From positions 8,435 to 72,434 of the forward strand of contig CAZCNF010000010.1 of NCBI GenBank assembly GCA_964500135.1: a DNA stretch of 64,000 nt, read 5' to 3'. Position numbers and translations under genes: made by a program. Shown here piece by piece: positions 1 through 10,169 of this stretch. This DNA is from an uncultured Porphyrobacter sp. GTDB taxonomy: Bacteria > Pseudomonadota > Alphaproteobacteria > Sphingomonadales > Sphingomonadaceae. Positions within the stretch are counted from its first letter, which is position 1; each line of letters starts with the position of its first letter. The notes beneath the pieces were generated by a model. The model was not told where the DNA came from and did not search any database. It saw nothing but the letters and a program-made list of their open reading frames with translations.

Positions 1-1569
1 AACGAGCTTCCCGATACCTGGTCCCAGGTGCCCATCAGCGAAGTCGCCGAGATCAACCCGCGAAAGAGCGTCGATTTGAATGGAGATGACCTGGTCTCAT
101 TCGTCCCGATGGCTGCCGTTGACGAAGTGTCTGGCACTATCGCCGCACCGATTGATCGGCCTTACAGCGAAGTCTCGAAAGGGTTCACCCACTTCCGTGA
201 CGAAGACGTGATCTTCGCGAAAATTACGCCTTCGATGGAAAACGGCAAGTCGGCAGTCGCTCGCGACCTGACCAATGGCACTGGCATGGGTTCAACTGAA
301 TTCCATGTGTTCCGCAGCTACGGGGCAATCGAGCCGGAATATCTCTGGCGTTACATCAGGCAACAATCGTTCCGTGATGATGCGCAGACTGTCATGTCGG
401 GTGCCGTTGGCCAGCAACGAGTCCCAGCGGAGTGGCTGAAGGAATACATGATCCCGCTCGCGCCGAAGGCCGAGCAGGGGCGCATCGTGAAGAAGGTGGA
501 CAGCCTGACCACACGCACCGCCCGTGCCCTCAAAGAGCTGGACCACGTCCCCGACCTCATCGCCCGATACAAGCGATCTCTATTGGGGAACATGTTCGAA
601 CGGCTTGCTGCGGAGCATGGCACACAGCCACTGGCAGAGCTTACAACGAAAATTGGAAGTGGAGCTACTCCACGTGGCGGTTCGAGCGTCTACGTGGAGC
701 AAGGAACTCCCTTTATTAGATCTCAAAACGTCTATTTCGAGGGCTTCGAGTATGAGGGATTGGCATTTATCGACGACGCTGCTGCCAAGGCTCTTTCAAA
801 TGTGACAACAGAAGAAAATGACGTTCTGCTAAACATTACCGGAGCATCAATCGGCAGAGCCACTATCCTGCCGGATGAGCTGGCTGGTGGCCGGGTGAAC
901 CAGCATGTCTCGATTTTACGCTGCAAACCTAATCTGCTGAACTTGTTCCTTCTGTATTTTCTATGGTCCCCTGAAATGCAGAAACTGATCAATGACGAGA
1001 ATTATGGCGTCACACGGCAAGCCCTAACAAAGAGTATGATCGAGGGCTTCTTGGTTCCGCTACCACCACTAGAAGAACAGGCCAAAATCGTACGCCGCAT
1101 CGAATCCGCCTTTGACTGGATTGACAGTGTGGCTAATGAACATGCCTCGGCTACAAAGTTGCTCCCGAAGTTAGACGGGGCCATCCTTGCCAAAGCCTTC
1201 CAAGGCAAACTTGTCCCGCAAGATCCGAACGACGAGCCCGCGAGCGCGTTATTGGAGCGAGTAAAGAAAGCACGTGTCGCGGAGCCAAAGGTAATGCGCG
1301 GAAAAGGGGCGAATAACTCGAAGTCCCGAAAGGAAACGCAGACCATGACCAAGAACCTGGAAGAGGTGTTGTCTGAAGCCGGAGACTGGATTTCTGCACA
1401 GGAAGCGTTCGCACAGTGCGGAATTGGCGGCTCTGCAACAACAGAAGAGATCGAAAAGATCTACGCCCAGCTGCGCAAGCTCGACAAGGCGGACCGTCTT
1501 GAAGCCGAGCCGATCCATGACGAGCAGGGGCGAAAGCTGCACGATCGGCTGCGTCTGAAGGCCGCCTGA
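1..1569 (+). CDS. hsdS: Type I restriction-modification specificity subunit, 5'-truncated by window, with extra C-terminal domain
   Basis: Frame is open from base 1 (NELPDTWSQVPISEV). Two TRDs, each followed by the conserved repeat (IPLAPKAEQGRIVKKVDSL; VPLPPLEEQAKIVRRIESA), then QGKLVPQDPNDEPASALLERV and ~100 more residues. Confidence 0.92.
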   Translation, partial: NELPDTWSQVPISEVAEINPRKSVDLNGDDLVSFVPMAAVDEVSGTIAAPIDRPYSEVSKGFTHFRDEDVIFAKITPSMENGKSAVARDLTNGTGMGSTEFHVFRSYGAIEPEYLWRYIRQQSFRDDAQTVMSGAVGQQRVPAEWLKEYMIPLAPKAEQGRIVKKVDSLTTRTARALKELDHVPDLIARYKRSLLGNMFERLAAEHGTQPLAELTTKIGSGATPRGGSSVYVEQGTPFIRSQNVYFEGFEYEGLAFIDDAAAKALSNVTTEENDVLLNITGASIGRATILPDELAGGRVNQHVSILRCKPNLLNLFLLYFLWSPEMQKLINDENYGVTRQALTKSMIEGFLVPLPPLEEQAKIVRRIESAFDWIDSVANEHASATKLLPKLDGAILAKAFQGKLVPQDPNDEPASALLERVKKARVAEPKVMRGKGANNSKSRKETQTMTKNLEEVLSEAGDWISAQEAFAQCGIGGSATTEEIEKIYAQLRKLDKADRLEAEPIHDEQGRKLHDRLRLKAA

Positions 1570-1573
1570 TCCC

Positions 1574-3268
1574 ATGCGCCTGGACAAGATCACCATCGGC
1601 AGCGCGAAGGATAGCCCGACCCACTGCTTCAAGAATCTGAAAAACGTCACGGTCGATTTTGATCAGAAGCACTGGGTCACGGTGGTTATCGGGTGGAACG
1701 GCACCGGTAAATCCAACGTCCTGGAAGCCTTGGCGATCATCTTTCGTGATTTGATTCAAGGTAGTGAAAAACCAAACAAACCTGTTCGACCTGCCTTTGC
1801 GTTCAATTTGAGTTACCGCATGGGCAGCGGCGATGAAGCCCTGCATATCAGCATCGATGCAGACCCCGATCGGGACAGGGAAACGCTGATTATCCATGTC
1901 GCGACTGATGCTGAAGCAAGGGGCGTCGGAACGCTGACGCCGTTCATAGAAGGCGAACCCAAAACATCTCCGCTGCGGGGCAAGAAGATTCCCGCCAAGG
2001 CGTTCTTCGAAGCCGGAGCGCGACACTTACCGCGCTTTGTTTTCGCTTATTACTCTGGCGAAAGCGACCGTCTTTATGAGGTATTCAAGCCCTATCTGGA
2101 AACCTTCGACAGGCAACTCAGGCAAGGCAGAAATCCAGGCTTGAAGCGGCTTTTCTACGCCTTGCCGACCCACAGCCAGTTCGTCTTGTTGGCGTTTCTG
2201 ATACAGCAGTCTGACGAGGTCAGGGAGTTTCTCGCGGATCATCTTGGGATTGATCCCGAAGAAGGGATCGACTCCGTCCTGTTCGTCCTGCGCCAACCGC
2301 CCTGGGATTCGAAAGAAGGTGACCCGCGCTTTTGGTATGCGAAAGGGGTTGTCGCCGACTTCTTAAGTCGACTTCAAGACATTGCGCTTGCACCGGTCGA
2401 AATCAGCCGCCGCGTTGCCGTATCGCTGTGGAACGAGAAGACACTTCAGTTCAAGTATCTATATATAAAAGATATTGCATCACTTCGGGAGCTTGTCGGC
2501 GCACAGCGCCCGGCCGAATTCTTCCGTGACATGGAAAGTACCTACGTCTCGCAGCTGATCGAAGAAGTGCGCATCCGCGTGCGTCTCAAGAAGAATGACG
2601 GGACAGTAACATTCCGCGAGTTGAGCGAAGGCGAGCAGCAGTTGTTGACGGTCCTGGGGTTGCTCCGCTTCACCGCCGAGAGTGAAAGCCTGTTCCTGCT
2701 GGATGAGCCTGACACGCACCTCAACCCCCGCTGGGCGGTTGATTACCTCAGCTATCTCCGCAAGTTTGCCGGACAGAATGACGGTGACCGAGAGAACAGC
2801 CACATTTTGATTACGACGCACAATCCCTTGGCCATCGCAGAACTCGCGAAAGAGCAGGTGCAGATCTTATATCGGACACCGGAAGCCAAAATCGTATCAG
2901 AAAATCCTGCCCTCGATCCCAAGGGGATGGGTTTTGCAAATATAGTAACGAGCGACATGTTTGGTTTGGGCACCAGTCTCGATCAGCAGACCAATGATGA
3001 CCTGGTCGAATTGCATCATTTGTCTACCAAGACTGAACTGACGGATGAGGAGCGCACGCGGATCGTCGAATTGCGGAAGGGACTCGAGGGTTTAGACTTC
3101 AATTTTGCGATGCGCGACAGGCTTGAGCAAGAGTATCTTCGAGCTCGGTTCGACTTGGCGAACGACGGCGAAATGGACGCCGCAATCGTAACTCCGGAGA
3201 ACAAGGAAAGGGCCCTACAGGCTCTGATCACCAGCCTGCTTTCAGATTTACAGCAGGAACGCCCGTGA
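1574..3268 (+). CDS. ABC/AAA_21-type ATPase (PtuA-like defence ATPase)
   Basis: Walker A GWNGTGKS, signature LSEGE, Walker B/D-loop LFLLDEPDTHLNP, H-loop ITTHNP. Starts 4 nt after the hsdS stop. Confidence 0.88.
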   Translation: MRLDKITIGSAKDSPTHCFKNLKNVTVDFDQKHWVTVVIGWNGTGKSNVLEALAIIFRDLIQGSEKPNKPVRPAFAFNLSYRMGSGDEALHISIDADPDRDRETLIIHVATDAEARGVGTLTPFIEGEPKTSPLRGKKIPAKAFFEAGARHLPRFVFAYYSGESDRLYEVFKPYLETFDRQLRQGRNPGLKRLFYALPTHSQFVLLAFLIQQSDEVREFLADHLGIDPEEGIDSVLFVLRQPPWDSKEGDPRFWYAKGVVADFLSRLQDIALAPVEISRRVAVSLWNEKTLQFKYLYIKDIASLRELVGAQRPAEFFRDMESTYVSQLIEEVRIRVRLKKNDGTVTFRELSEGEQQLLTVLGLLRFTAESESLFLLDEPDTHLNPRWAVDYLSYLRKFAGQNDGDRENSHILITTHNPLAIAELAKEQVQILYRTPEAKIVSENPALDPKGMGFANIVTSDMFGLGTSLDQQTNDDLVELHHLSTKTELTDEERTRIVELRKGLEGLDFNFAMRDRLEQEYLRARFDLANDGEMDAAIVTPENKERALQALITSLLSDLQQERP

Positions 3269-4050
3269 GGTTCATTGCCGTCGCGCTTCCGCCCAACCTG
3301 CCGAAGAAGTGGTCCAAAGTCTACGAGGGCCGGACTTCCGGACTTGCCAGCAAGGCCACGCAAAGGCTGCGCGCCGAATACTTGACGAAAAATCCGAGCT
3401 GGGGCCGATTGAAATCATGGCTGTCGAACTTGAGCCATCAGAAGTGCTGGTATTGCGAGGCAAATAGCCGCCGTTCGCCTTTCGACGTGGATCATTTCCG
3501 GCCGAAACTCGGGGTCACCGTCGACGGTCAACCACTCCCTGACGGTTTCGGCTACTATTGGCTGGCGTACGAGTGGTGGAATTTCCGCCTGTCATGTCAG
3601 CGCTGCAATCGACCTGAAAAAATAGATCGAACGACCCGGCGAGGTAAATGGAACGAATTTCCGATTGAATCTGAGCATACGCGTTGTGCGCCAACCTCTA
3701 TCACGGTGGATCAAGAAACCCCTCGCTTCCTTGATCCCTGTGTACAATCAGATTGTGATCTGTTGGCGTATGGCATCGACGGCGAGGTCAAGCCGGCATG
3801 TCCTGCCGGGACTTGGGAGCACGAGCGTGCACGCTACACAATCGAGCAACTGGGCTTCAATGACTGGAACGTGCCGGAGGATCGAAAGAAGGCGTGGCAG
3901 ACGCTTGCCCTAGTCATTCAACACGCGCCACAACCCGAAGCTGAAGGGTGTGTCGCGTATTATTTGAGCGAAGAGCACGAATATTCCAGGTTTTTTCGGT
4001 CCGTAGTAGGAACACACCGTGATAAGCAATGGGTTGATACCCTCCTCTAG
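3265..4050 (+). CDS. HNH endonuclease (PtuB-like)
   Basis: KCWYCE...DVDHFRPK...YYWLAYEWWNFRLSCQRCN. GTG start overlaps the ATPase stop (GTGA). Confidence 0.85.
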   Translation: MRFIAVALPPNLPKKWSKVYEGRTSGLASKATQRLRAEYLTKNPSWGRLKSWLSNLSHQKCWYCEANSRRSPFDVDHFRPKLGVTVDGQPLPDGFGYYWLAYEWWNFRLSCQRCNRPEKIDRTTRRGKWNEFPIESEHTRCAPTSITVDQETPRFLDPCVQSDCDLLAYGIDGEVKPACPAGTWEHERARYTIEQLGFNDWNVPEDRKKAWQTLALVIQHAPQPEAEGCVAYYLSEEHEYSRFFRSVVGTHRDKQWVDTLL

Positions 4051-4345
4051 TGTGTTACGAGCCTGGATCGAAATTCCGCGGCCTTCACCACCGCCCTCGA
4101 AGCGTTGAGGATCGCGTAGTTGGCGGCCTTGAGCACTTTCAGCTAGCACAAGGGGTAGTGAGCCTTACCTAAGCTCGTCCTGCTCGGGGACCCGCAGCAC
4201 GCCATCAAGTCCCTGCAATCGCAAGGTCGCGGATAGCCTTGTTGCGGATTGGCCCCACAATGAGGCCCCCTTTCCGCTCCAGGGCATGGATTTCGGAAGC
4301 ACTCACAATGAGGAAACCGGTGCGTGAGAGGCTAAGCCTCGTAGG

Positions 4346-4738
4346 TCATCTTTGATACCAATCACCGACTTCCTTGGCGGCCGCTTCTACCGCCTTGCGG
4401 ATCTGCTCGGCCGCACCCAGCACATTGCCTTCGCCTGACTCCATGATGTCGAGCGCCTTATCGACAGTACGTTGCAGCTGATCGAGCCGATATGCCCTGT
4501 GGGAGATAGCTATTTTGCCTACTTCCTTGTGGAAGCGCTCTCGCACCAGCGCGTGATACTCGAGCCAACGGAGAGACGCTGCGAACTGAAACGATGCAGG
4601 ATCGTAGGCCCTAACGTGCCGTGGCGTGAGTATGACGCCGAACTCCTTCTCGATCAGATCCACAACGTCCGCCGGCCTCTGGAAGCAGGCAAGGTGCTCC
4701 ACGATCCGTTTCTTGATTGCCTCTGGAAGTCTTTTCAT
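4346..4738 (-). CDS. DUF2280 family protein (terminase small-subunit-like)
   Basis: MKRLPEAIKKRIVEHLACFQRPADVV..IEKEFGV..TPRHVRAYDP...IAISHRAYRL...AAAKEVGD fits the DUF2280 pattern. Start placed at ATG 4738. Confidence 0.75.
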   Translation of the reverse strand: MKRLPEAIKKRIVEHLACFQRPADVVDLIEKEFGVILTPRHVRAYDPASFQFAASLRWLEYHALVRERFHKEVGKIAISHRAYRLDQLQRTVDKALDIMESGEGNVLGAAEQIRKAVEAAAKEVGDWYQR

Positions 4739-4887
4739 AAGGTAAGTCCTGGGTAAGAAGCGCACGTCTAGGGACGTGGAAAACGCCCTAGAGTGCTCGC
4801 CAAGTTTTGAGTTTCTTGCACATCCCACGGCAGTGCACTGCCCGCTTCTCCTGGCAACTGAAGTGCCCGTTGTGAATGTTGCCAGAC

Positions 4888-6114
4888 TCAGTCTGTTACG
4901 TCTGTTACGTCTGTTACGTCTGTTACGTCTGTTACGCTTTTCCCGGGTTCCGTGAGCTTGACGTCGGTGATCGCCAAATCGGGGAGGTAACGCTTCCAAG
5001 CATCGTATAGATCTTCCCGAACATAGCCCTTGAGTGGCCCGAAATCGGTTCGAATCGATCTTGGCCGAACTTTGTATGGACTAAGAAGCGCGGCCAACTT
5101 TCGATCATCGAGCGGCTTGCCTCGAAAGTCTCCCCAAGGGGCTTCTTCATCGCTGTTGAGCGTCTCGAGAATCTTCGTTGTTGGCATCTTTTCTTCATCG
5201 CCGAAGATCTGGCGAAGGTCTGATAGCAGACGGACGCCTATGCTGGGCTTGTTGGTCTTGGAAGCCGTAACAAGCGTAACAGCCGCTACACGAGCCCGTC
5301 GTTCCCACTCCTCCCCAAACGTTGTTGCGACAGCAAGAAGCGGCTCCCAGAGGTCAGCGTCCCGATCGGCTATGCCATACGGCATAGTTGGCCGCAGTGC
5401 CCTCAATCTCGCCACGTTGCGTTCAGCCCAGCTGGCAAGCCTATCACGGAGTTTATGCCCCAGCGGCGCATGATCTCGGTATCGATAGGATTCGACCTTT
5501 TCCTCACGGCTTCGGCGCCTCATATGTATAATGATTGAGCGCGTACGGATTGTGAGTGGGAGCTCAAACAAGCCAGCGAGAGCAACCGCTGAGTAGGCCG
5601 GCAGCTCCTCGGTCTCTATCTGCCTTCCCCTTACGATGCACCGACCCGCTACTGCGCCTTTCCGGTGTCCGGCATTGAGCAGGCCCCGGATCTCTTCGTT
5701 ACCTTTGGCTTGCGGGCCAAAGATCGTGTCGATCTCATCAAACAGAATCGTTGGCCGACCGGCCTTGGCGCCAACCTTGCGGAAAAGATATGCCGGCGTG
5801 ACGTTGACCGCTTCCACTGGGTTCGGGACTAATGTCTCGGTGACCTCAAGTGCGCGTGTCTTGCCAGATCCCGGTTCGGGAGACAGAAAAGCAAGTCGAG
5901 GGGTGGAGTCCCAGGCATCCATGGCATGGGCATGAGCAATCCAGAGGACATGGGCATCGGCAGCCTCTGCGCTTGGATACACGACAAAACGACACAAGAG
6001 CCGGTGAACCATGTCCAACAAGCAGCCATCCGATTTCTCACGAGGAGCTAGGGGCATTTGGATGATTGTCCCCGATGAGTTCCCACTTGGCGCATGATGT
6101 TTGTCGAAGGTCAT
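4888..6114 (-). CDS. DUF3631-containing P-loop replication protein (primase/helicase-associated)
   Basis: P-loop SPEPGSGKT, ILFDEID, GLLNAGH, and C-terminal LLSDLRQIF...EAPW...LAALLSPYKVRP...KGY..DLYDAWKRYL typical of DUF3631. Confidence 0.8.
   Translation of the reverse strand: MTFDKHHAPSGNSSGTIIQMPLAPREKSDGCLLDMVHRLLCRFVVYPSAEAADAHVLWIAHAHAMDAWDSTPRLAFLSPEPGSGKTRALEVTETLVPNPVEAVNVTPAYLFRKVGAKAGRPTILFDEIDTIFGPQAKGNEEIRGLLNAGHRKGAVAGRCIVRGRQIETEELPAYSAVALAGLFELPLTIRTRSIIIHMRRRSREEKVESYRYRDHAPLGHKLRDRLASWAERNVARLRALRPTMPYGIADRDADLWEPLLAVATTFGEEWERRARVAAVTLVTASKTNKPSIGVRLLSDLRQIFGDEEKMPTTKILETLNSDEEAPWGDFRGKPLDDRKLAALLSPYKVRPRSIRTDFGPLKGYVREDLYDAWKRYLPDLAITDVKLTEPGKSVTDVTDVTDVTDVTD
4891..4935. 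repeat. 5 perfect tandem copies of GTCTGTTAC (iteron-like)
   Basis: Read directly; encodes the (VTD)5 C-terminus of the DUF3631 gene. Inverted variants CGTAACAAG/CGTAACAGC at 5266-5283. Confidence 0.95.
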
Positions 6115-6431
6115 GCGCCTGGGCCCTCCATATCAATGTTCTCCGCCTGCATCGCTGTGACCAGGAGGCGACGAAGGAAGAGGTTGAGGTCCTTGAGCTC
6201 GCTTTGATGGGCATGTGAGTAGACCCAAAGCGTGGCATAATCTGAGGCAATCCACGCCAACTGCCTCGCGGTATCGCTGGCTGTACTGCGGATCATGCAG
6301 CTTGCTACGTTCCTGAATGAACGCATCTTCGCTCTGAGCGCATGCTCTTCATCACTGATGCCCGGCAAGAAGATGCGGATATCGTCCGGCTCAGGAAATG
6401 CAGTGGTTGGATCTTTGGAGCTCGGCATCAC
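6111..6431 (-). CDS. Hypothetical protein
   Basis: 106-aa ORF with 4-nt overlaps to both neighbours. Confidence 0.65.
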   Translation of the reverse strand: MMPSSKDPTTAFPEPDDIRIFLPGISDEEHALRAKMRSFRNVASCMIRSTASDTARQLAWIASDYATLWVYSHAHQSELKDLNLFLRRLLVTAMQAENIDMEGPGA

Positions 6432-6616
6432 ACGTCTCCCTCAAGGAGAGCGTGCAAACTTTCTGCCGTGATCAGGGACCTGCGGCCGACCCGGCGCTTA
6501 ATTAGCTTTCCCTCTTGGATGAGCTCATAAATTCGGGTCTTTCCGAGGGATGTGAGATGGGCAGCCTGCTTGATTGAATAGGCAAGCTGCCGCTGATTCT
6601 TGATACCTTCAGTCAT
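6428..6616 (-). CDS. Excisionase/AlpA-like HTH protein
   Basis: LAYSIKQAAHLTSLGKTRIYELIQEGKL..RRVGRRSLI; GGAG RBS before ATG 6616. Confidence 0.85.
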   Translation of the reverse strand: MTEGIKNQRQLAYSIKQAAHLTSLGKTRIYELIQEGKLIKRRVGRRSLITAESLHALLEGDV

Positions 6617-6728
6617 TGGATATCTCCGTTCTACTTCGTGAACGGCCATCCAAATACACTGATGTCAGCGGACGTCAGCAACCATCGGCATGACAAAAAG
6701 CTGTACCAAGTTTTCGTCCAGAGAGGTC

Positions 6729-7340
6729 CTATGTTCGCTCTTTGCTCGCTGAAGCTAAGATCCGAACCCATTGGCCCCAAGTCAGAGACCGTGCGAGCGC
6801 AGCATTCTTTTGTTCAGCTTCCTTGTCCGCCCTTACTGCTTCCTCATACAGCTTAACCTTCCCGACATACTTGTAGACGGTATTGTCTTTGACCCCGAAT
6901 TCTTTGGCTAATTCCTTGACCAGCGACTCGACCTCGCCTTTCCGCCACCGCGCTCGGTATTCTTTTGCTATTCGGAAAGCCAAGTCCGGAGGTCGCCCAT
7001 TTTTTTTAGGCGCCCCACCTTTCGCAGCCGGCCGATCGGGATGCTCCACAACAATAAGCCGATAATCAGATCTATAGTGGGTTCCCGCAATCAGCTTTCT
7101 TAGTTCGAGAACAACCTCCCGGTCGGGTATGCCGCGCTCTTGTCGCAAATATTCACCGAGGCTATCGAGGCAACCATTCCGCAGGTCGGCCACTACGACC
7201 AGGGGGTGCACCCGTGACAAACAAGCCTTCTTGGGTAGATCATGCACAGGTTTGAAGCGCTTGTGCCGAATGCTCGTTTCCCTAACGTGCCGTACCTTTA
7301 CTAGCTTACCTTTTGCACGGCCTGAACGTCGTCTTGTCAT
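6729..7340 (-). CDS. Hypothetical basic protein with probable C-terminal HTH
   Basis: 203-aa ORF overlapping the HD gene stop; VESLVKELAKEFGVKDNTVYKYV is HTH-like. Confidence 0.55.
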   Translation of the reverse strand: MTRRRSGRAKGKLVKVRHVRETSIRHKRFKPVHDLPKKACLSRVHPLVVVADLRNGCLDSLGEYLRQERGIPDREVVLELRKLIAGTHYRSDYRLIVVEHPDRPAAKGGAPKKNGRPPDLAFRIAKEYRARWRKGEVESLVKELAKEFGVKDNTVYKYVGKVKLYEEAVRADKEAEQKNAALARSLTWGQWVRILASASKERT

Positions 7341-7909
7341 CTCCTCACCCCTTCATTTGATGCAGCAGGAGAAAGCCAATTGGCTTCCCCTAACGCCCAC
7401 TTGTCGAGGCAGGCATTCACCCCGCTGCACCCCGACATCACCTCTTTGGCGAACTGGAGGTATTGAGCCTTCCGATTCTCGCTCCAATTTGGCGGCGCAG
7501 CCTTGATGTCTCTTAAGTTCGCAATCTTATCGGCGATCTTGATGAGCTTGGCGTCATTCGACTTCCTTGGCGCATTGAGCACCTGCAGGCGCTTGCGCTC
7601 AGCCTTTGGGAGGGTCTTGTCGTCGGTGACTTCGAGAACCAGGGAACATATCCGCTCACCAAAGACAGCGGCCAATTCCTCTGCCGTGGTCTCGGTGTCC
7701 TCGATCGTGTCGTGCAGGATGGCCGCTACGAGGATGTCCGTGTCGTCAATTCCAGCCTCGGTCAGGATCCGGGCCACCTCGAGCGGGTGGTTGATGTAGG
7801 GCGTGGCACCTACGTCCTTACGTCGCTGGTTCCTGTGGCGGTCCGCCGCGAAACAGGCAGCCTCAAGCAGCCTTGCAGCGTCAGTCTTCGTCCTCTTCAA
7901 TTCTTCCAT
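7337..7909 (-). CDS. Stand-alone RSH-type HD hydrolase (Mesh1/small alarmone hydrolase-like)
   Basis: FAADRHRNQRRK..TPYINHPLEVA...AAILHDTIEDT...EVTDDK...KIADKIANLRD; GGAGG RBS. Confidence 0.88.
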   Translation of the reverse strand: MEELKRTKTDAARLLEAACFAADRHRNQRRKDVGATPYINHPLEVARILTEAGIDDTDILVAAILHDTIEDTETTAEELAAVFGERICSLVLEVTDDKTLPKAERKRLQVLNAPRKSNDAKLIKIADKIANLRDIKAAPPNWSENRKAQYLQFAKEVMSGCSGVNACLDKWALGEANWLSPAASNEGVRR

Positions 7910-8564
7910 ACCTTACCTCCATGCGTTGGCTGAGCTCGTCGAACACGTCGACGATGTGGACCTCACGTCCCGGTGACATTGCTTCCAGCAGCCCTGCGGT
8001 CTCGAGCACGCACCGCGTCCAGTCGGGACGTTCGGTGACGCGGGCAAAGCACTCCTTCTCGAGGAAACTCCCCCATTTGCGGTGCTCTCTCGCCCGCTGG
8101 TCCTCGAACAGGTCGATCTGCGGGTCGAACAGCAGTCGGCGATAATGCGAGCAGAACCCGGCCCAGGGCAGGTAGAACTCGCCTAGGTCCAAAGCCGAGC
8201 GGTCGAACAGGCTGTCAGGTGGGTTGGCGCGCGGGTTGATCAGTTCGACCGCGTAGCAATAGCGCTGCCGGCACAGCCAGATCAGTTCCTTGAGATCGCT
8301 CTCGGACGAGCGCTTCTGATGGAACACCATCTCGTCGAGGCTCATGGTCGCGTCCGAGACGTGAAGCTGACCGGTGGGTCGAAAATAGACGGGTAGCCCG
8401 GATTGAGCCTTGAACTGGCTCTGGGCAAGTTGGTGCATCGGCAGTCTCCTAAAAGGACACCGAACCTTCTGCGCTGCTGGTTGGAACCCAACAGAGCCTT
8501 GAGGCTCGGGTTCGTCAGCAACTTCCTGATTTTCAGGGAGGTCGAGAACTTCTCTCGACGACAA
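7881..8564 (-). CDS. Hypothetical protein, start uncertain (TTG 8564 or an internal ATG)
   Basis: Long ORF filling the gap between integrase and HD gene on the same strand; no motif recognised. Confidence 0.5.
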   Translation of the reverse strand: MSSREVLDLPENQEVADEPEPQGSVGFQPAAQKVRCPFRRLPMHQLAQSQFKAQSGLPVYFRPTGQLHVSDATMSLDEMVFHQKRSSESDLKELIWLCRQRYCYAVELINPRANPPDSLFDRSALDLGEFYLPWAGFCSHYRRLLFDPQIDLFEDQRAREHRKWGSFLEKECFARVTERPDWTRCVLETAGLLEAMSPGREVHIVDVFDELSQRMEVRYGRIEEDED

Positions 8565-8679
8565 TCACGATACGAAAACTGCGCCGCTTAGCAACTCAAA
8601 ACCAACGCATCCGGCCCATTCACCGACAGCTGCATCTTCTGTGCAACACTCATAACAAAGGGCTGAGTCTAGCCGCTCG

Positions 8680-9897
8680 TCACGCACGGTTGGCCAGCTT
8701 GACCACCTCACCGCCATCCCTCAGCTGGTCGAGATAATCGCTCCACCACTGCGCCATGCGCACGCGCTCGTCCCAGTGCTGGCCACGGTGGTAAATGCCG
8801 CGCACGACGTTCTGGTCCTGGTGCGCCAGCGCACGCTCGATCGCGTCATGGCTCCACAGGCCGGATTCGTTGAGTAAGGTAGACGCCGTAGCCCGCAGGC
8901 CATGCGCGGTCATCTCGTCGCCGGTGTAGCCCATGCGGCGCAGCGCGCCGTTGATCGTGTTCTCACTCATCGGCCGATCCTTCGAAGCCAGCGAACGGAA
9001 CACGTAGCGCGATCCGCCGTTGAGACCGCGCAACTGCTCAAGCAGCCCAAGGACCTGATGGGAGAGCGGAACGGCATGCGGCCGGCGCGATTTCATCTTG
9101 CCGGCAGGGATACGCCAAACCGATGCCTCGAGGTCGAACTCCTCCCATTCCGCGTGGCGCAGTTCGCCCGGGCGGACGAAGACATGCGGCGCCATCCGCA
9201 GCGCAAACAGCGTCGTGTGATTGCCTTCGTACTTTTCGATCGCACGCAGCAGTCCGCCAAGTTCAACCGGATCGGTGATTGCGGCATAGTGTTTGGGCTT
9301 GGGGGAGATCAGCGCGCCCTTCAGCGGCGCGCAAGGGTCATGCTCGGCGCGCAGGGTCGAGACCGCAAAGCGGAACACGCGGCTGGCAAAGCTGCGCAGC
9401 CGGCGTGCCTTCTCGTAATTGCCCTTCTGCTCGTAACGCTTGAGTGTGGCGAGCATCTCATGCGGCGTGATCTCGGCGATCGGTCGGTGCCCGATCGACT
9501 TGTTGAGCACGCTCGCCAGCCAGTTCGACTTGACCAGTGTCGCCATGGCCAACCCCTCGGCCTCGCGCTTGGCGATGTATTCAAATGCAACGGCCTGGAA
9601 GGTGTCGCCTTGCCGGATGATCGCGGCGATCTTCTCCTCGCGCCTGCGCCGCGCGGGATCACCGCCCCGCCCGACCTCGACCCGCGCTTCGTCGCGCATC
9701 AGCCGCGCCTCCTTGAGGCCGACCTCGGGGTAGCGGCCGAAGGAGAGTTTCTTCTCCTTGCCGAGCTGGCGATATTTCATCCGCCACAGCTTCGAGCCGT
9801 TGGGCCGGATCAGGAGATAGAGCCCGCCGCCATCGGACAGCTTCCAGTCGCGCTCGCGCGGCGTAGCTTGCTTCACCTGCAGATCAGTCAATGCCAT
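8680..9897 (-). CDS. P4-like tyrosine integrase with Arm DNA-binding domain
   Basis: LSDGGGLYLL..GSKLWRMKYR N-domain; catalytic VRPGELR, HGLR, LAH, GIY; GGAGG RBS before ATG 9897. Confidence 0.95.
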   Translation of the reverse strand: MALTDLQVKQATPRERDWKLSDGGGLYLLIRPNGSKLWRMKYRQLGKEKKLSFGRYPEVGLKEARLMRDEARVEVGRGGDPARRRREEKIAAIIRQGDTFQAVAFEYIAKREAEGLAMATLVKSNWLASVLNKSIGHRPIAEITPHEMLATLKRYEQKGNYEKARRLRSFASRVFRFAVSTLRAEHDPCAPLKGALISPKPKHYAAITDPVELGGLLRAIEKYEGNHTTLFALRMAPHVFVRPGELRHAEWEEFDLEASVWRIPAGKMKSRRPHAVPLSHQVLGLLEQLRGLNGGSRYVFRSLASKDRPMSENTINGALRRMGYTGDEMTAHGLRATASTLLNESGLWSHDAIERALAHQDQNVVRGIYHRGQHWDERVRMAQWWSDYLDQLRDGGEVVKLANRA

Positions 9898-9912
9898 GGG
9901 GTCCACCTCCAA

Positions 9913-9979
9913 TAGGGGGCGATTCCGGCGTCATTTTCGCTGGGGGCCTCAGGGCAAAAAAGGCCCCCAGGGCCCCCAG
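9913..9979. repeat. Probable integrase arm-type sites
   Basis: CTGGGGGCCT (9940-9949) is inverted to AGGCCCCCAG (9961-9970); direct copy GGCCCCCAG 9971-9979; TAGGGGGC 9913-9920. Confidence 0.6.
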
Positions 9980-10082
9980 GTCGAAAATGGACGTTGGCGA
10001 ACGCCTCCGAACAGCTCGGAGAATTTTCTACCATATTTCAGTGGGTTTTGGAATTGCCGGCGAACAAAGCCGGAAGAACAAA

Positions 10083-10169
<87 letters not shown>

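Follow-up and report, generated by a model that had tools for sequence, protein, structure and literature searches.

Septu systems of type I (PtuA-PtuB; PDB 8EE4/8EEA) and the type I-A retrons (Ec78 and Ec83; 9N69, 9NNB) encode an ATPase followed by an HNH nuclease, an order shared by the locus described here. PtuA forms tetramers or hexamers (PMC12065111; PMC12819146). In the retrons, the ATPase-HNH pair is described as being restrained by a separate module that acts via insertions of the ATPase (PMC12475279, PMC12819146); the IS2 insertion of retron I-A holds the msDNA that exerts this restraint, in the absence of which the pair is toxic (PMC12475279). The PtuAB of Ec78 needs such a restraining partner, and that of stand-alone Septu is reported not to need one in the same way (PMC12819146). 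PtuC, as annotated by PADLOC, is the retron reverse transcriptase (PMC8565338). It is different from the tail module that is the subject of this work.

PrrC carries an ATPase and a HEPN-type tRNA nuclease domain in a single chain. This ABC-ATPase nuclease is encoded within a type I restriction-modification (R-M) operon, the EcoprrI type IC locus, and is activated on inhibition of R-M (PMC12707154). Ronin (HsdM-HsdS-RonA), which often lacks HsdR, uses HsdMS to restrain a toxin and is reported to respond to ArdA and Aop1 (10.1101/2023.04.06.535777); RonA is described as a 61-aa membrane toxin with a gene of its own. In MADS, methylase and specificity genes are joined to an ATPase-nuclease pair, MAD3-MAD4 (PMC13662399). 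Retron-Kva2 includes a winged-helix protein that helps to suppress its nuclease (10.64898/2026.07.14.738597), where it is reported to act with msDNA on a HEPN nuclease, unlike the HNH system considered here. The PARIS preprint (10.1101/2024.01.02.573894) is cited as an analogy only. That defence genes are embedded in type I loci is already known (10.1101/2024.01.29.577857), the tail module being unmentioned in the available part of that account. Across the literature searched, no HsdS winged-helix tail, R-M-tethered PtuAB or internal hsdS start is described; some work on ABC ATPase classification and Septu structure, together with supplements, lay outside its scope.

Layout of the locus and its relation to known systems

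The window, by which we mean the whole 64,000-nucleotide stretch of DNA that was analysed, opens within hsdS (1..1569, plus strand; start codon 3 nt before the window, TGA at 1567-1569), which encodes 523 aa with two target-recognition domains (TRDs) and a fused C-terminal module. The TRDs correspond to two stretches matching Pfam Methylase_S (PF01420, 79.5 bits). In PADLOC, the product is Specificity_I (PDLC03127), and the tail is already part of that model, unnamed, at positions 498-571. By its TRDs and the presence of hsdM and hsdR in the same operon, the module-bearing protein is assigned to the HsdS of type I R-M. The conserved end of HsdS, QDPNDEPASALLERVK, lies at 1219..1266, and tail-less control HsdS proteins stop shortly past this motif, after a basic stretch. 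A first-pass annotation of this DNA had noted an extension past the usual HsdS end, made up of a basic linker and a 74-aa segment, and this description is borne out: the linker is 26 aa long (1267..1344; eight Lys/Arg and two Glu), its final codons also serving as the putative ribosome-binding region, and 74 codons, ending RLRLKAA, run from ATG 1345. This nested in-frame open reading frame (1345..1569, plus strand; 8.3 kDa, acidic pI of 5.1) is predicted to encode a winged-helix adaptor. It is preceded by a Shine-Dalgarno (SD)-like AAAGGA (1329..1334, plus strand), which takes the form AAG GAG at codons -5/-4 in the family, with a spacer of 10 nt to the ATG. A DNA contig of sequencing run X2, which may be the source sample, covers 1275-1450 and is identical to the window.

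The gene that starts 4 nt past the hsdS stop (1574..3268, plus strand) had been recorded simply as an ATPase; it can now be named as a Septu-type PtuA with an HNH partner. The 564-aa ABC/SMC-like product matches PADLOC PtuA at E 5.5e-250, its Walker A, signature, Walker B and H-loop motifs are all intact, and its nearest solved folds are those of retron I-A and Septu PtuA. Only ATPase families are found in it by Pfam, the nuclease being the separate HNH gene ptuB (3265..4050, plus strand; 261 aa, PADLOC PtuB E 1.2e-58), with the motifs CWYC, DHFRP and CQRCNRP. Just before the PtuA signature motif lies an alpha/beta insertion domain of about residues 230-340 (2261..2593, plus strand), delimited from predicted interface residues 234-333 and secondary structure. 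The operon as a whole runs hsdR, hsdM, 8xMP, DUF4357, hsdS, ptuA, ptuB, all genes abutting or overlapping. In the coordinates of the enclosing locus (L001), an intact hsdR of 1126 aa occupies 1872-5252 (NF008521, 1515 bits against a cut-off of 729) and an hsdM-type methylase gene 5249-6721. Between hsdM and hsdS (6718-8435) are an 8xMP octameric membrane protein of 265 aa and a DUF4357 protein of 307 aa; an 8xMP/DUF4357-like pair recurs in locus L002, and a DUF4357-type gene alone in L004. Defence finders report this locus as two independent systems, and the nested product is missed by annotation pipelines.

The GC content of the operon is 55%, against 64% for the genome, and the PtuA clade is absent from all 11 genomes of the same genus that were searched. 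Close by are a tyrosine integrase gene (8680..9912, minus strand; Pfam Arm-DNA-bind_3, Phage_int_M and Phage_integrase) and a tRNA-Leu(CAG) gene (10083..10169, minus strand; aragorn) that is the likely integration site. Because low GC near an integrase and tRNA-Leu is combined with the lack of the PtuA clade in congeners, the operon likely sits on a mobile island. The rest of that island (4346-10169) encodes DUF2280, DUF3631, an HTH_17 excisionase-like protein and an HD-domain hydrolase, followed by the integrase and tRNA-Leu. A short tandem repeat at about 4890-4940 encodes (VTD)n at the end of the DUF3631 reading frame and (NRR)n in an overlapping frame. Scanning for promoters and terminators gave results at chance level, with no plus-strand promoter-like sites in 1-4400.

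Comparison with the systems introduced above places the locus outside the retrons, PrrC, Ronin, MADS and TIGR04435 by the features tested, its parts belonging to known families (type I R-M and Septu-type PtuAB). In contrast to two-gene, stand-alone Septu type I, PtuA of the window's clade has the genetic context of a preceding tailed HsdS in all 11 loci that were picked by PtuA alone. Unlike retron I-A (Septu type II), the window has no reverse transcriptase, the upstream reading frames being hsdS, DUF4357, 8xMP, hsdM and hsdR; its PtuA scores 49 against the NCBIfam cut-off of 500 for Ec78 PtuA, and its insertion is an alpha/beta domain with no coiled coil, unlike those of the retron I-A and Septu ATPases. 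Whereas PrrC is a single chain, the ATPase and HNH nuclease are here on separate chains, and the link to R-M is a covalent HsdS module plus its likely free form. The effector PtuAB and the presence of hsdR distinguish the locus from Ronin, as does a small product that is nested in hsdS and has a soluble predicted fold; assignment to Ronin was rejected since no separate gene for a 61-aa transmembrane toxin stands beside hsdMS. MADS was likewise rejected, on scores far below the cut-offs (MAD2 86.5/720, MAD3 30.6/420 and MAD5 60.8/400 bits), and MAD4 is a Toprim nuclease in contrast to the HNH enzyme of the window.

The best NCBIfam match to PtuA is the sister family TIGR04435, the restriction system-associated AAA ATPase, at 145.7 bits; membership was rejected against a cut-off of 300 bits. 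No paper naming that family was found in the literature searched. In its loci (two over the cut-off and one split; L099, L100 and L108), the ATPase gene is likewise preceded by an hsdS whose product is extended at the C terminus, by 67-95 aa, and two of the three extensions begin with Met. They may be distant winged helices. Tested against the tail profile they give no clear match (15, 1 and 6 of 200 shuffles as good), and that of L099 has neither a significant profile match nor a clear start.

The tail module, its association with ptuA and its predicted docking

Searching 1.84 billion cluster representatives for the tail returned 115 matches, two of them long repeat proteins that we discounted as spurious. 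The remaining 113 comprise 96 fused to upstream sequence, 15 recorded alone and two intermediates, and an HsdS-type end motif is present in 88 of the 96 fused forms. Short contigs account for most of the stand-alone records, one of which falls in a cluster with a fused form of 511 aa; the records on chromosome-length contigs are P0001 (74 aa, Sphingomonas aurantiaca) and P0144 (109 aa, Aeromonas caviae). The tail is conserved far above the HsdS body, for example 62% versus 22% in L005, and is acidic throughout the family (median charge -3.5 over the 113 sequences). In L011 (65-903) and L082 (near 5114), both from low-coverage or metagenome assemblies, the tail has left the HsdS frame by what look like single-base shifts within the A-rich linker, and its own start is kept. 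These shifts reflect either assembly error or natural split or slippage.

The suggestion made at first sight that the segment could be a winged helix is well supported by prediction. AlphaFold2, given the 113 sequences, models three helices and a two-strand wing with a pLDDT of 94.7, and fold searches with this model return winged helices only. The top structural match is 6qpq_D, a cohesin kleisin C-terminal domain (Z 7.6, rmsd 2.9, 69 residues aligned), which at below Z 8 is tied within 1 Z with MarR, PadR and Fur regulators and histone H5; 6yuf_B and 1w1w_E are further kleisin matches. Foldseek gave nothing at E <= 0.001. By sequence, Pfam yielded only a sub-threshold Sua5_C match, NCBIfam no family and the PDB chance matches only, and the Atlas supplied no family name, its clusters matching at 0.91-0.92. 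We describe the tail as a predicted small acidic winged-helix module. Like the C-terminal winged helix of the kleisins (Scc1/Rad21), it is predicted to sit on an SMC-like ATPase; it has no counterpart of the kleisin N-terminal domain. The kleisin winged helix binds the surface of the SMC ATPase head, at the head cap. Such a mode of binding was considered for the module and dropped, as the modelled site lies on the insertion domain of PtuA.

The tail and ptuA occur together. Among 85 loci, ptuA is directly behind the tail in 83 of 83 tail-bearing locus records (75 distinct), one locus (L017) being without the tail; the gap is 1-6 nt in 70 of the 75 distinct loci, and the arrangement covers two gene orders and two HsdR types. 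In the reverse direction, the 11 loci picked by PtuA alone (five plasmids, four genomes and two Escherichia coli chromosomes) all have an upstream HsdS with a C-terminal extension. In 10 of the 11, this extension matches the tail profile and has ATG or GTG at the tail start; seven of these matches were shuffle-tested (0 of 200 as good), and three, at 22-111 bits, were scored without shuffles. The remaining one, L094, has an extension with no significant match to the tail profile and no clear start. The E. coli loci (L128:4799-10498 and L129:4863-10390) are compact, reading hsdM-hsdS(tail)-ptuA-ptuB, and lack an hsdR within 8 kb. A control search with the HsdS end over 301 genomes led to 10 other genomes, a small set of controls in which kin are not independent. 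Six control HsdS proteins share the end motif and terminate just past the basic stretch, none having a PtuA-clade gene behind it; the sole tailed HsdS among the controls precedes a TIGR04435 ATPase. The expectation that the tail would be limited to HsdS proteins followed by an ATPase thus agrees with both sets. In L115 and L121, a tail-less HsdS lies directly before other, unrelated ABC-type ATPases, an arrangement that indicates the existence of further R-M-embedded ATPase cassettes without the module.

With blastn and one homologue as query, 3 of 5426 genomes matched. A single-sequence tblastn of the tail against plasmids found none, yet divergent tails are present in plasmids. A match in G398 was rejected as a tail, being part of an efflux-type gene.

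Mirror-distance comparison over 48 loci, in which pairs are not independent, gave a Spearman coefficient of 0.45 between the tail and the PtuA insertion, against 0.79 with HsdM (partial values, 0.40 versus 0.78), and 0.77 with the PtuA core. Contrary to what had been expected, the tail tracks HsdM and the PtuA core over the insertion, so the unit is inherited whole, and the test lends no support to specific co-evolution. Among the same 48 loci, PtuB of two types occurs next to closely related PtuA (22 window-like and 26 distant), and the C-terminal part of PtuA shows a poor fit to the tail in these comparisons, which makes swapping of effectors likely. In L003 (8225-9945), ptuA is in two pieces of 168 and 390 aa, with the tail, the tail start and ptuB intact.

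The proposal that the tail interacts with the ATPase gains support from structure prediction. In complex prediction, the module and PtuA obtained a score of 0.81 over three runs, the best of three controls obtaining 0.00; of the pairs used for calibration, 116 of 157 that are solved and 2 of 215 that are mismatched attain the score mark, counts that hold only roughly because the alignments were custom-made. The runs share at least 96% of contacts, with a partner pLDDT of at least 88. The predicted interface on PtuA spans residues 234-333, in the alpha/beta insertion just before the signature motif, and on the module it takes in the face of helix 3 that is invariant. Tail residues at this interface, among them E37, Y40, L43, R44 and D67, are more conserved than the rest (0.69 versus 0.51, p 0.001), and conservation on the PtuA side falls short of significance (p 0.07). 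A sequence-based look for a similar solved complex returned none. The module is thus predicted to bind the PtuA insertion domain, at a site that by chain position, without superposition, may correspond to IS2 of the retrons.

The internal start of hsdS

The first-pass annotation had also credited the nested reading frame with its own ribosome-binding site and ATG. The elements are as described, and they are selected across relatives; the window signal alone is within chance. At -5.6 kcal/mol, its SD ranks 5 of 29 among the in-frame ATG, GTG and TTG codons of hsdS, and an ATG within the linker, at 1294, scores -5.8, past the value for the tail start. It is only through the relatives that the internal start exceeds chance. 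These were analysed as 70 distinct in-frame loci, after removal of exact duplicates and exclusion of seven records (duplicate, reversed, broken or out of frame), with SD energies computed from a generic anti-SD motif.

All 70 loci have an ATG, GTG or TTG no more than one codon away from the boundary, compared with 15% of background windows, and a start codon is present at the boundary in all 37 representatives below 80% nucleotide identity. Codon choice follows the same pattern. Where Lys-Glu occurs at codons -5/-4, it is written AAG GAG in 46 of 48 cases versus 12 of 104 elsewhere, and a boundary Val is GTG in 39 of 41 cases versus 805 of 2382 in the background. The median SD energy at the tail start is -8.7 kcal/mol versus -2.1. 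In the wider family, the boundary residue is Met in 77 of the 96 fused 50%-cluster representatives and Val or Leu in the remaining 19, against a background of 2.7%. On the PtuA tree (60 rows), ATG, GTG and TTG replace one another 14 times or more, and the start codon is never lost. Each of the two SD codons shows one synonymous change, versus 7-21 at two-fold sites from codon 7 onward (49 rows). The SD of ptuA itself is weak (median -4.1), being strong in 9% of loci versus 83% for the tail start.

As judged from these codon patterns, the SD and start of the nested reading frame are under selection at the DNA level. It is likely that one gene makes the module twice, fused to HsdS and free from the internal start.

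Proposed control of the nuclease pair

The reading that we prefer, and consider modestly probable, is that the module ties PtuA-PtuB to the methylase and restrains it until a phage interferes. A free 8.3-kDa module would be translated from the internal start. As ptuA begins 1-6 nt past the stop codon common to both forms and its own SD is weak, ribosomes finishing the module would go on to provide PtuA by coupling. Coupling would yield about one adaptor per PtuA subunit, compared with a single HsdS-fused copy per methylase. The fused copy would anchor PtuAB on the methylase, and free copies would cap the other PtuA subunits. On the model of PrrC, Ronin and retron I-A, adaptor-bound PtuAB would be quiet; once anti-restriction proteins acted, or the methylase complex was damaged, the nuclease would be freed and abortive infection would follow. 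We favour this account because there is one tether per methylase, PtuA is oligomeric, and a strong internal start feeds a weak, coupled ptuA. Restraint of PtuAB is not a given, since stand-alone Septu is reported not to share the requirement of Ec78 PtuAB for a restraining partner (PMC12819146). The adaptor reading put forward at the outset is largely supported; we infer both its antitoxin role and its production in tethered and free forms.

The same predicted binding and adjacency would also serve a system in which the HsdS-fused module brings PtuA-PtuB to unmethylated sites as an alternative or extra nuclease, the free copy taking part as a subunit in assembly of the PtuA oligomer. Degradation of viral DNA has been reported for type I Septu (PMC12475279), and the flanks examined contain no hsdR at 5 of the 43 tail loci that are well flanked and at 7 of 10 PtuA-picked loci, the two E. 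coli chromosomes included. Against such recruitment, the main rival, which we consider unlikely but worth keeping in view, 38 of the 43 well-flanked loci retain an hsdR match, including the intact 1126-aa gene of the window. Free module would compete with tethered module for PtuA, which suits capping over targeting, and Ronin, too, is without HsdR and yet is described as a decoy (10.1101/2023.04.06.535777). The internal start might, on the other hand, be an expression device that lifts coupled translation of ptuA above the low level of HsdS, with the free module a by-product and the fused copy alone of importance. The short gap to ptuA and the weakness of its SD fit this; a start that was out of frame or later would couple equally, however. 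The one observed never leaves the frame and coincides precisely with the domain boundary, and the predicted interface would be present in full on the free product. We regard this as improbable.

Two further possibilities are, in our estimation, very improbable. The module could be a DNA-binding helix-turn-helix, giving HsdS an extra grip on DNA or acting as a small autoregulator of the operon, as the MarR, PadR and Fur proteins within 1 Z of its top fold match would allow; one Atlas cluster is auto-named 'Transcriptional regulator' (0.91, no Pfam family). Its acidity, with net negative charge family-wide, disfavours DNA binding, the invariant face of helix 3 is that predicted to contact PtuA, the module is never seen apart from ptuA in the 83 tail records, and no plus-strand promoter-like site was found in 1-4400 of the window. 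Alternatively, the module could be the relic of a once separate small gene that became fused to hsdS, its SD and start codon now unused. A past fusion is itself likely, as the linker matches the natural end of tail-less HsdS, where the same basic stretch is found, and about 15 of the 113 representatives are recorded as stand-alone proteins, although mostly on short contigs and in one case clustering with a fused form. An unused SD and start would have decayed, whereas here they are frozen while synonymous sites within the module change freely.

Returning to restraint of PtuAB by the module, it may represent a third and widespread mode of Septu control, after the stand-alone and the retron-bound, in which an antitoxin-adaptor nested in hsdS would act both as a tethered tripwire for anti-restriction proteins and as free caps, with a stoichiometry set by coupling. 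This broader proposal is tentative and falls somewhat short of probable. What is new here is the codon-level case for a free second product, together with a controlled prediction of the interface. The activator of Septu has been called unknown in the published account (PMC12475279). The coupling of guard nucleases to a restriction enzyme, and the control of Septu outside the retrons, become testable through a link of 74 residues, a predicted interface and a hidden second product. Where the module begins with GTG, read as valine in HsdS, synonymous changes suffice to remove both SD and start, and the free form can thus be separated from the tethered form with HsdS unchanged. If the model is true, these bacteria would hold a backup anti-phage nuclease in check until their restriction enzyme is attacked.
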